From Candidatus Falkowbacteria bacterium (GTDB taxonomy: Bacteria > Patescibacteriota > Patescibacteriia > UBA11705 > JACRDX01): DNA of 31,133 nt. A program made the translations under genes and the position numbers. The stretch spans positions 1-31,133 of the forward strand of contig JACRDX010000020.1 in assembly GCA_016212745.1 (NCBI GenBank), given 5' to 3'. The notes under the pieces are model-generated. The model worked only from the letters and a program-made list of their open reading frames with translations, was not told the DNA's origin and made no database searches. Below, in pieces: positions 27,178 through 28,727 of the stretch (position 1 is its first letter; each line of letters opens with the position of its first letter).

Positions 27178-28255
27178 ATTCCATGTTTCCGCGGTTTTTA
27201 ATCAATTTATTCATTTCCATTATTATTAAATTAGCATTTATTGTTGAAATGGGCAAGTTTGTGGACTTGGAAAGTTGATTAATGTGCATGAAGCCATGCG
27301 TTAACGCAGTTAAGATTTGTACTTGTTCTTTTGTCAAATTAAGGGGTGTTGACCGTTGCGTTGATGGAAGTTTGTTGCTCAATTTCAAAATATCCAAAAT
27401 GTCTTGCGCTGATGTTGTTAAATAAGCGCCTTGTTTTATCAAGCCATTTGTTCCTTGCGAAAACGGGCAGTCAATGTTTCCTGGAATGGCAAAAACTTCG
27501 CGATTTTGTTCGGTTGCAAAAAATGCGGTGATCAGTGCGCCGGATTTTTGGCCGGCTTCAATTACTAAGGTGGCATTGGAAAGTCCGGAAATAATGCGGT
27601 TGCGAGCAGGAAAGTGTTCGCGCAAAGCTGGCATTTTTGGCGCGTATTCTGAAAAAATGGCGCCGCCAGCAGATAAAATTTGCTCGGCCAGTTTTGCGTT
27701 TTGTCGCGGATAAATGCTACTCAATCCGCCCCCAAGTACGGCGATTGTATGTCCATTATTTTTCAAACAAAGTGAGTGCGCGAAGGCGTCTGCGCCGAGC
27801 GCCAAACCGCTTATGATTGAAAAATTATTTGCGACCAGCGTTGGAACAATTTGTTTCAACGCTCGTTCGCCATAGCTTGTTAATCTTCGCGTGCCAACAA
27901 TCGCGATGGCCACTTGTTGGTTGCATTTTGTTAAGTCGCCTTTATAAAAAATCGCTGCTGGCGGGGCAGATATTTGTTTTAACAATGGAGGAAATTGTTT
28001 GTCAGAAAAAGTGACGAGCTGAATGTTGTGTTTTAGCATTGTTTCCAATTCTGCGTCAGGATTTATTTTGGGTCTGCGCTCATTTAGTTTGTCAATAAAA
28101 CAGTCGCTGAATTTTAATTTGCGATAGTTGCTGGCTGGCGCGCGCCATGCGTTTTCCAAGGTTTTGAAACAACGCAAAAGTTTGCCGATTGTTTTGTGAC
28201 CAATATCGGGTATTTGCAAAAACGCGGTCCAATGTTTTAGTTCGTTATGGGACAT
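27164..28255 (-). CDS. dprA: DNA-processing protein DprA (Smf)
   Basis: AIVGTRR, ISGLALGAD, HFPARNRIISGLS, VIEAGQKSGALITA, FAIPG, C-terminal wHTH; ATG at 28255. Confidence 0.95.
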   Translation of the reverse strand: MSHNELKHWTAFLQIPDIGHKTIGKLLRCFKTLENAWRAPASNYRKLKFSDCFIDKLNERRPKINPDAELETMLKHNIQLVTFSDKQFPPLLKQISAPPAAIFYKGDLTKCNQQVAIAIVGTRRLTSYGERALKQIVPTLVANNFSIISGLALGADAFAHSLCLKNNGHTIAVLGGGLSSIYPRQNAKLAEQILSAGGAIFSEYAPKMPALREHFPARNRIISGLSNATLVIEAGQKSGALITAFFATEQNREVFAIPGNIDCPFSQGTNGLIKQGAYLTTSAQDILDILKLSNKLPSTQRSTPLNLTKEQVQILTALTHGFMHINQLSKSTNLPISTINANLIIMEMNKLIKNRGNMEYEIF

Positions 28256-28727
28256 AGCTACGGAACTACGGATTCTACAGATTGGGCTACGGATGTTAAT
28301 AAATGTTGGCAATTCTAGCAATTTTTACTTTTAAGCTGGTGAATAGAGCAAGGATTCCTAATTTTAATTTTGATGTTTTTAAATATGACTTTATTTGGTT
28401 GAAATCTTTTGACAATAAATGTCGCCCTCTTTTTATTTCCAGCACGATTTGGTTTTCAATTATGAAATCAAAATAATGATGACCAATTTTTTTCCCTTGA
28501 TATTTTATGGCAACGTAGAATTCGCGTTGATAATTTATATTTAGCTTCGCTAGTTCGTCCGCAATGGCTTTTTGTATAATTTTTTCATTGTACCTCCATC
28601 CAATGGTGTTAAAGACATGAAAAAGGGCGCCAATTATTTTATAACTTAAATCTTCGTAAATTAGTTTGGTTGGCATAAACTAATATATCCGTAGTTAATC
28701 CGTAGCATCCGTAGGTCGGTAGCTATG
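28253..28727 (-). mobile_element. Cargo-loaded palindromic element: CTACGGA-periodic arms around the GxxExxY gene
   Basis: Arms 28253-28296 and 28686-28727 match the empty element at 4239-4336; TATTA direct repeat (taata on plus) at 28297-28301 and 28681-28685. Mobility is inferred. Confidence 0.65.
28296..28676 (-). CDS. GxxExxY-family protein (PD-(D/E)XK nuclease-like fold)
   Basis: 126 aa; LIYEDLSYKIIGA.F.V.N.IG, degenerate NEKIIQ motif, FDFIIENQIVLEIK, QIKSYLK...LGIL..F. Confidence 0.88.
   Translation of the reverse strand: MPTKLIYEDLSYKIIGALFHVFNTIGWRYNEKIIQKAIADELAKLNINYQREFYVAIKYQGKKIGHHYFDFIIENQIVLEIKRGRHLLSKDFNQIKSYLKTSKLKLGILALFTSLKVKIARIANIY

Follow-up and report, generated by a model that had tools for sequence, protein, structure and literature searches.

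A GxxExxY nuclease gene between heptad-repeat arms ahead of dprA, and the gene-less copies of its arms in a groundwater bacterium

What ties a small nuclease gene to a palindrome that is split around it at one site and stands whole at several others? The question arises from a 31,133-nt stretch of DNA, here called the window (contig C2), from a groundwater bacterium whose close relatives are labelled Candidatus Falkowbacteria; the assembly, designated G000, comprises 660 kb in 74 contigs, with 41% G+C and ~90% completeness. Directly in front of dprA, the window carries a gene for a 126-aa protein of the GxxExxY family enclosed by two arms of short repeats, and between rluD and cca it carries the same two arms joined without a gene. 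An earlier reading made from the letters alone (hereafter, the sequence-only reading) saw here a filled and an empty form of a minimal cassette. Our analysis suggests, with a probability that we put at about 0.5, that the locus is a repeat-armed GxxExxY cassette, in which the nuclease is paired with its own cognate arrays of short motifs and would work in the manner of REPIN/RAYT (doublets of repetitive extragenic palindromes, REPs, and their REP-associated tyrosine transposases) and NTS/Ssn.

On the minus strand, the order of the locus is pth, a terminator-like hairpin, a 26-nt partial arm copy, the upstream (L) arm, the 126-aa open reading frame (ORF), the downstream (R) arm and dprA. A repeat search of the window bore out the arm matches of the sequence-only reading: the upstream arm aligns with positions 4239-4285 over 47 nt at 94% identity (44/47) and the downstream arm with 4295-4336 over 42 nt at 83% (35/42). 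The L and R arms can be distinguished by their spacers, and this distinction is common to the loaded and the gene-less copies. The window has 12 occurrences of the heptad CTACGGA where 0.95 would be expected, a count reached in 0 of 100 shuffles; 11 of the 12 fall in the two elements. As had been proposed, the 126-aa ORF stands alone between the arms and the 98-nt copy without the gene is predicted to form a hairpin (z -5.8 on one strand and -8.0 on the other); in a transcript of the loaded copy, the arms are predicted to be able to pair across the ORF as a long-range stem.

The 126-aa protein belongs to PF13366 (PDDEXK_3; E 4.8e-26, 91.9 bits against a cut-off of 22), which is its only Pfam match, and to TIGR04256 of NCBIfam (E 7.2e-25, 87.6 bits against a cut-off of 35). 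This is a very large family, annotated merely as 'GxxExxY protein', and full-text searches of the literature for PF13366, TIGR04256 or GxxExxY, and for palindromes of the candidate phyla radiation (CPR), returned no description of a function or of flanking repeats. D70, E80xK82 (the D...ExK signature of the sequence-only reading), Q94xxxY98 and E31 are all intact, and D70, E80, K82, Q94 and Y98 are invariant across an 18-sequence alignment. The literal G-x-x-E-x-x-Y motif of helix 2 reads R-Y-N-E-K-I-I here: the E is kept, and the G and Y are replaced both in this protein and in its two orthologs, one of which additionally has E changed to K. An AlphaFold2 model (mean predicted local distance difference test score, pLDDT, 90.5) has as its top Foldseek matches the Cas4 protein SSO0001 (4ic1, E 1.3e-4, 23-24% identity) and its AlphaFold entry Q97TX9 (E 2.4e-4), followed by MGME1, lambda exonuclease and AddA nuclease domains and, further down, by YraN, Hjc and tRNA-splicing endonucleases; the homing endonuclease I-Bth0305I is among the weak fold matches. 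The protein thus models as a Cas4/RecB-like PD-(D/E)XK nuclease with all motifs intact, and it contains no cysteine and therefore no Fe-S cluster. Cas4/RecB-type enzymes act on single-stranded DNA and on DNA ends, and Cas4 cuts at short motifs. The sole match of a sequence search of the PDB, the leucine-rich-repeat protein Crov588 (PMC9525666), was judged spurious.

The arms belong to a dispersed family. A genome-wide search with a profile built from five full copies detected ~13 CTACGGA-heptad loci in G000, namely eight or nine full palindromes (C2, C31, C32, C36, C45, C49, C51 and partly C70) and four half copies (two on C31 and one each on C20 and C59). Only one copy is loaded and split, and the PF13366 gene is single-copy in this genome; the count of empty versus filled copies that the sequence-only reading had called for thus extends the gene-less form well beyond the window. 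Most copies are intergenic and lie near gene starts or ends. Complementarity is higher in the motifs than in the spacers (95% versus 79% identity), a comparison that cannot separate selection for hairpins from selection for binding sites because the definition of motif positions biases it. At C20:2482-2529, an L-type half copy with an ATATTAT end directly precedes the lexA ATG; it came along with a small TTGCGCA-TAT-TGCGCAA palindrome in a ~100-nt block that is absent in the congener G001, the lexA of which has a TATAAT box just ahead of the ATG. At C31:6412-6465, an R-type half copy lies in frame (GYGTTDSTDETTDNTD) inside a GT4-like glycosyltransferase gene, and a diverged version is found at the same place in G001.

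Comparison of the whole G001 assembly at every family locus shows that gain or loss of the gene-less copies involves discrete units with GCTAC...GTAGC as their borders. The C32 palindrome of G000, which has TATG on both sides of GCTAC...GTAGC, is missing in G001, where the empty site has a single TATG; conversely, the C5 palindrome of G001 is missing at the orthologous C66 site of G000, with only AT, or nothing, repeated. G001 likewise lacks the C49 copy and the half copy next to lexA, and copies at C51, at C59 and in frame in the glycosyltransferase gene are present at orthologous sites of the two genomes. At C59, the locus flanks are 86-88% identical; the half copy shares 92% identity with a paralog from the same genome but 74% with its positional ortholog, which is in turn 90-92% identical to other G001 copies, a pattern of concerted evolution or repeated re-insertion. 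The gene-less family of G001 matches the arms of that genome's second PF13366 gene, on C21, and the relation in which the arms of a gene equal the gene-less copies of the same genome has therefore been seen twice. The rluD-cca spacer of G001 was considered as an element-free allele of the 4239-4336 doublet and discarded: a different 620-bp insert stands there and gives no boundary information. This spacer (G001:C13; L120, 2040-2650) has a 104-aa ORF and another GC-rich palindrome in place of the 98-nt doublet, so that the rluD-cca junction has been hit by different insertions in the two genomes. Directly after a tRNA-like 3' end (...TTCGATTCCCGCCATCTCCA), G001 has a heptad palindrome (C4:123390-123510) and G000 an unrelated 146-nt insert (C51:5990-6160).

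Across genomes, arrays and gene go together. We searched 61 genomes for three ACRRAT units spaced by 1-5 nt, a pattern that yielded ~0 matches when reversed as a control. At least four matches, and up to 162, were present in 25 of the 28 genomes that bear PF13366; only 2 of the 33 genomes without it reached that number (six matches each), and three of three same-order genomes without it had none. Many of the matches form plus/minus pairs ~50 nt apart, that is, gene-less palindromes, of which the genome G030 has more than 20 that are near-identical. The comparison with autonomous and non-autonomous elements, the latter akin to miniature inverted-repeat transposable elements (MITEs), fits these counts, with gene-less copies found almost only in PF13366-bearing genomes.

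Could the palindromes nevertheless be ordinary REPs or REPINs moved by the Y1 (RAYT-like) transposase of the genome, with the GxxExxY gene as a passenger between two of them? G000 does contain a RAYT-like HUH/Y1 ORF (NHIHLI ... YYDH; C7:5787-6497, minus strand), the heptad family has CTAC-containing units and the ends GCTAC...GTAGC, and GTAG-tagged REPs are the RAYT-associated class (PMC3733652). The RAYT-like gene, however, is flanked by a different GTAG-type REP (GTAGAGACGCGGCA...), a second repeat system that is separate from the heptad family and has its own copies in the window, at 5356-5369 after rluD and at 30657-30685 inside der. Nor do the arrays follow PF01797 (Y1/RAYT) across the 61 genomes: 18 have PF01797 yet fewer than four arrays, and G030 (53 matches) and G003 (10 matches) have arrays without any Y1 match. 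Many cassette arms elsewhere also lack GTAG (TGTGATT, CACAGAT, GCGGACT, CGCAAAA). We rejected this explanation, which we regard as hardly credible, on account of the distinct REP of the RAYT-like gene and the failure of the arrays to track PF01797.

Repeat arms are a habit of PF13366 genes in general. We scored the similarity of the 200 nt upstream of a gene to the reverse complement of the 200 nt downstream, with 483 G000 genes as a control (median 18, 95th percentile 24.9). Among 27 PF13366 loci from 60 relatives, 74% scored above the control 95th percentile (Mann-Whitney p 1.5e-14), as did 90% of 78 further loci from species-representative genomes of Patescibacteria and a few other phyla, where the single clear exception is the G001 ortholog of the studied gene (score 16). 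Without exception, an arm consists of 3-5 short units in an array, and most arms lie 10-60 nt ahead of the start and 0-50 nt past the stop; the unit varies among copies (TACGAAT, TACAAAT, TACAGAT, CACGGAT, TGTGATT, GCGGACT, CGCAAAA). We also inspected four plasmid-borne PF13366 genes of cultured non-CPR bacteria: that of Gemmatirosa has a CGCGGAT-array palindrome just downstream, that of Treponema is flanked by a single-unit inverted pair, and those of Fusobacteria and Persicobacter have ATCCG-type repeats that are direct rather than inverted. The arm habit thus reaches beyond CPR, with variable geometry. The relation between filled and empty forms that the sequence-only reading discerned is accordingly real and general, given the ~13 loci in G000 and the arms around most PF13366 genes elsewhere.

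The history of the locus bears on how the gene came to lie between the arms. The arrangement of terminator, GxxExxY gene and dprA is common to two relatives, the congener G001 and L036, a 1.4-kb contig from another sample. The L036 protein is 79% identical and both arms are kept, the upstream one ~83% identical; its downstream arm is longer, the ORF runs into the arm and there is no TATTA pair. The G001 protein is 67% identical and carries K at the near-invariant E31 (E31K); the upstream arm is gone and a 14/20 remnant stands ahead of the dprA ATG. At loci that keep them, the arms are conserved to about the same degree as the coding sequence. The same junction is occupied in three lineages, and the gene has therefore been there since before they split. 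The G001 locus looks like a decayed copy, and the overall pattern fits a vertically inherited master copy rather than a cassette that recently landed in a hairpin. An empty or element-free allele in front of dprA, for which the sequence-only reading advised comparing relatives, turned up only in part: the gene is present in both, and the arms are lost, apart from the remnant, in G001. The further claim that the element supplies the dprA start codon does not hold, as the arm merely abuts the codon: the dprA starts of both orthologs, arm-less G001 included, line up with the dprA ATG at 28258-28256.

These observations weigh on the idea that the palindrome is a pre-existing landing site, into the apex of which the nuclease gene inserts in the manner of a homing endonuclease or an integron cassette. 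A gene flanked by half-sites of a palindrome that is intact elsewhere is the signature expected of a dimeric endonuclease, PD-(D/E)XK homing endonucleases exist, with I-Bth0305I a weak match to the fold, and TATTA stands at both inner junctions, its second copy overlapping the TAT TAA end of the gene as the sequence-only reading had noted. The TATTA pair is absent, however, in the closest ortholog, L036, which makes it weak evidence, and a target duplication was rejected for this reason. Only 1 of the ~13 sites is loaded, and this one is orthologous in three lineages; the palindromes are confined to gene-bearing genomes and so are not independent targets; and paralogous PF13366 genes within one genome bear different arm types. 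Homing or capture at a vacant site is, in our judgement, very improbable, and the insertion proposed by the sequence-only reading gives way to a loaded copy that looks like the ancestral master. Its likening of the locus to an integron attC site fares no better, and we rejected it: no tyrosine recombinase (PF00589), such as the IntI that together with attI adjoins integron cassettes, is encoded in the window, with PF00589 matches only on C40, C55 and C45, and G000 has no second loaded copy. PF13366 is also the sole cargo, with no second gene between the arms at any of ~105 loci, all of which were selected by a PF13366 match and hence give no independent test of cargo.

Some PF13366 matches sit in very long open frames. 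In relatives, the reading frame passes through two whole cassettes, arms included, at the beta2-beta3 turn in the G domain of LepA, and another lies between motifs II and III of the RecG helicase; lepA and recG of G000 are uninterrupted. A database search restricted to inserts returned at least 185 protein clusters with the embedded domain, in LepA, RecG, GatB, LeuRS, a glycosyltransferase and others. In the cassettes L007 (G002), L009 (G007) and L008 (G030) and the proteins P0020-P0139, which come from many Patescibacteria, arms of the GCGGACT type are translated. No Hint domain was found in the in-frame GxxExxY cassettes. A 798-aa open frame (G036:C101) was dismissed because it arises where a PF13366 gene reads on into a pilin-like gene and is no genuine in-frame insertion. 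The in-frame cases show that arm-gene-arm segments can enter DNA as units.

The same cases count against a reading of the arms as a non-mobile, cis-acting RNA or DNA structure, in which regulatory hairpins (a terminator, an mRNA stabiliser, an RNase III site or operator arrays) would be common to several intergenic regions. Such a role would agree with the strong predicted hairpins, with a long-range stem that could enclose the ORF, with copies adjoining gene starts and ends and with a promoter-like site within the downstream arm (Table 1). Yet the hairpins lack a T-run, copies are found in frame within coding genes, congeners differ by the presence or absence of whole units, concerted evolution is seen, the arrays depend on PF13366 at the genome level and no Rfam family matches the region, which together leave this explanation improbable. 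The stop codon of the nuclease gene falls within the -35 hexamer of the promoter-like site, which could drive dprA. The 26-nt partial copy outside the upstream arm is confined to G000, with a gap at both orthologous loci.

Table 1. Features of the loaded locus and of the gene-less doublet (positions in the window)
Feature	Position	Strand	Remarks
pth	29221-29820	-	gene upstream of the cassette
Terminator-like hairpin with T-run	28834-28860	-	ends the upstream unit; kept in both orthologs; fixed left border of the locus
Partial copy of arm terminus (CATAGCTACGAACC...), 26 nt	28728-28753	-	just outside the upstream arm
Upstream (L) arm	28681-28727	-	terminal CATAGCTAC, then three CTACGGAT units; TATTA end 4 nt ahead of the ATG
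GxxExxY/PDDEXK_3 gene, 126 aa; predicted Cas4/RecB-like minimal nuclease, no cysteines	28296-28676	-	
Downstream (R) arm	28253-28294	-	TCCGTAG/TCTGTAG units, GTAGCTATG end; last three bases are the dprA start codon
Promoter-like TTAACA-16-TAGAAT in the downstream arm, facing dprA	28272-28299	-	consensus match only
dprA (DNA_processg_A + DprA_WH)	27164-28258	-	next gene after the cassette at each of the three orthologous loci
Gene-less doublet, with a single TATTA between its L and R arms	4239-4336		between rluD and cca

The nearest published system is Ssn/NTS, in which small GIY-YIG nucleases are flanked by hairpin repeats (NTS/SRM repeats) that are also scattered through the genome, and in which transformation is lowered by SsnA, an enzyme that cleaves single-stranded DNA next to the repeat (Chenal et al. 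2025, PMC11893778). Both systems have a small single-domain nuclease gene with hairpin-forming repeats on either side, many further repeat copies per genome, co-occurrence of repeats and gene across genomes, and many enzyme/repeat pairs that differ in sequence. They differ in the enzyme, which is a GIY-YIG nuclease in one and a PD-(D/E)XK protein of Cas4/RecB type in the other, and in the repeat, which is a single 20-50-nt hairpin in Ssn and an array of 3-5 units of 7-9 nt here; moreover, cleavage has been shown for the published protein, whereas PF13366 is likened to it from sequence and fold. With REPIN/RAYT (PMC3116915, PMC3337134, PMC5581495), the present system has in common that the gene is single-copy, inherited vertically and enclosed by its own repeats, that inverted doublets without the gene are scattered through intergenic DNA, that each gene lineage has a repeat type proper to it and that the repeat population is tied to the presence of the gene. 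Unlike in REPIN/RAYT, the gene between the arms is PF13366 and not an HUH/Y1 (PF01797) transposase, the Y1-like ORF lying elsewhere, the arms are heptad arrays, and cassettes of the family also occur in frame inside genes. The GxxExxY locus does not have the defining enzyme of either system and is therefore a member of neither.

Other resemblances are partial. As in transposons with terminal inverted repeats and their MITEs (Tn7, Mu, pairs of insertion sequences and MITEs), the inverted ends consist of several repeated short sites and are common to gene-bearing and gene-less copies, which are present or absent as whole units; unlike in these transposons, no DDE, HUH, serine or tyrosine transposase lies inside, the sole ORF being the 126-aa nuclease, and the loaded copy does not seem to have moved recently. 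Cas4 (SSO0001, PDB 4ic1) and RecB domains provide the best structural match and the same motif set (E...D...ExK...QxxxY), but the present protein lacks the Fe-S cysteines of Cas4, is ~75 residues shorter and has pth and dprA, not cas genes, as neighbours. In-frame read-through in surface loops of housekeeping proteins, by a half copy here and by whole cassettes in relatives, recalls Rickettsia palindromic elements, which carry no gene, and inteins, which have the Hint splicing domain that the GxxExxY cassettes are without.

The likeness to Ssn can also be taken further, to a domesticated nuclease that acts site-specifically on single-stranded DNA and restricts or modulates incoming or recombining DNA bearing the repeats; the arrays would then be recognition sites that the protein does not spread, and the position ahead of dprA would reflect a role in natural transformation. 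The architecture is the same as in NTS-ssnA-NTS (PMC11893778), with the effects of SsnA on single-stranded DNA and transformation described above, the Cas4/RecB-like fold belongs to a class that acts on single-stranded DNA ends, and the gene is single-copy, vertically inherited and adjacent to dprA in three genomes. The neighbours of PF13366 loci elsewhere vary, however (ligA, asnS/aspS-like, lepA, recG), so that the dprA linkage is not general, and restriction by itself leaves the multiplication of the repeats, in-frame insertion and homogenisation within genomes unexplained. We consider such a nuclease possible, if unlikely; it overlaps with the explanation that we prefer and does not exclude it.

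In that preferred explanation, a nuclease paired with its own arrays, the enzyme would recognise the heptad arrays, in the way that Cas4 and Ssn recognise short motifs and probably when the DNA is single-stranded or extruded as a hairpin, and would cut at or near them; cutting, together with host repair or replication, would duplicate and homogenise the doublets of arms. The role of master would fall to the loaded copy, with the 98-nt 'empty' form as an arms-only derivative and not a vacant landing site. We infer that the enzyme has a role in the spread of these derivatives.

Several points weigh against this explanation. A 126-aa nuclease alone cannot explain integration, and the support for cutting, binding and movement comes from comparison of sequences and models. 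The gene can persist in the absence of arms, as it does at this locus in G001, and since gene and arms are physically linked, nothing can be learnt from their joint divergence. The genomes compared are kin, and the co-occurrence counts overstate independence. At ~80% identity, with no near-identical strains among the comparison genomes, the presence/absence cases could be old. Target-site duplication is inconsistent, with TATG in one case and AT or none in the other, and Logan assembler contigs, of low depth (~5x) and hence uninformative on this point, gave no empty allele or joint.

A bolder formulation would make GxxExxY cassettes a separate class of prokaryotic mobile element, whose own nuclease cuts the hairpin arrays and drives the copying of the arms, with gene-less doublets as its MITEs and in-frame copies as intein-like insertions without splicing; we regard this as a doubtful proposition. 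If the nuclease does act on its own arms, it would add to RAYT/REP and Ssn/NTS a third nuclease-plus-repeat system of independent evolutionary origin. The window offers a compact test set, with one gene, two arms, about a dozen natural gene-less substrates and an arm-less E31K variant in a congener. Such a system would account for one class of palindromes scattered through the very small genomes of the candidate phyla radiation, and it might provide a set of small nucleases that each recognise a different short motif.

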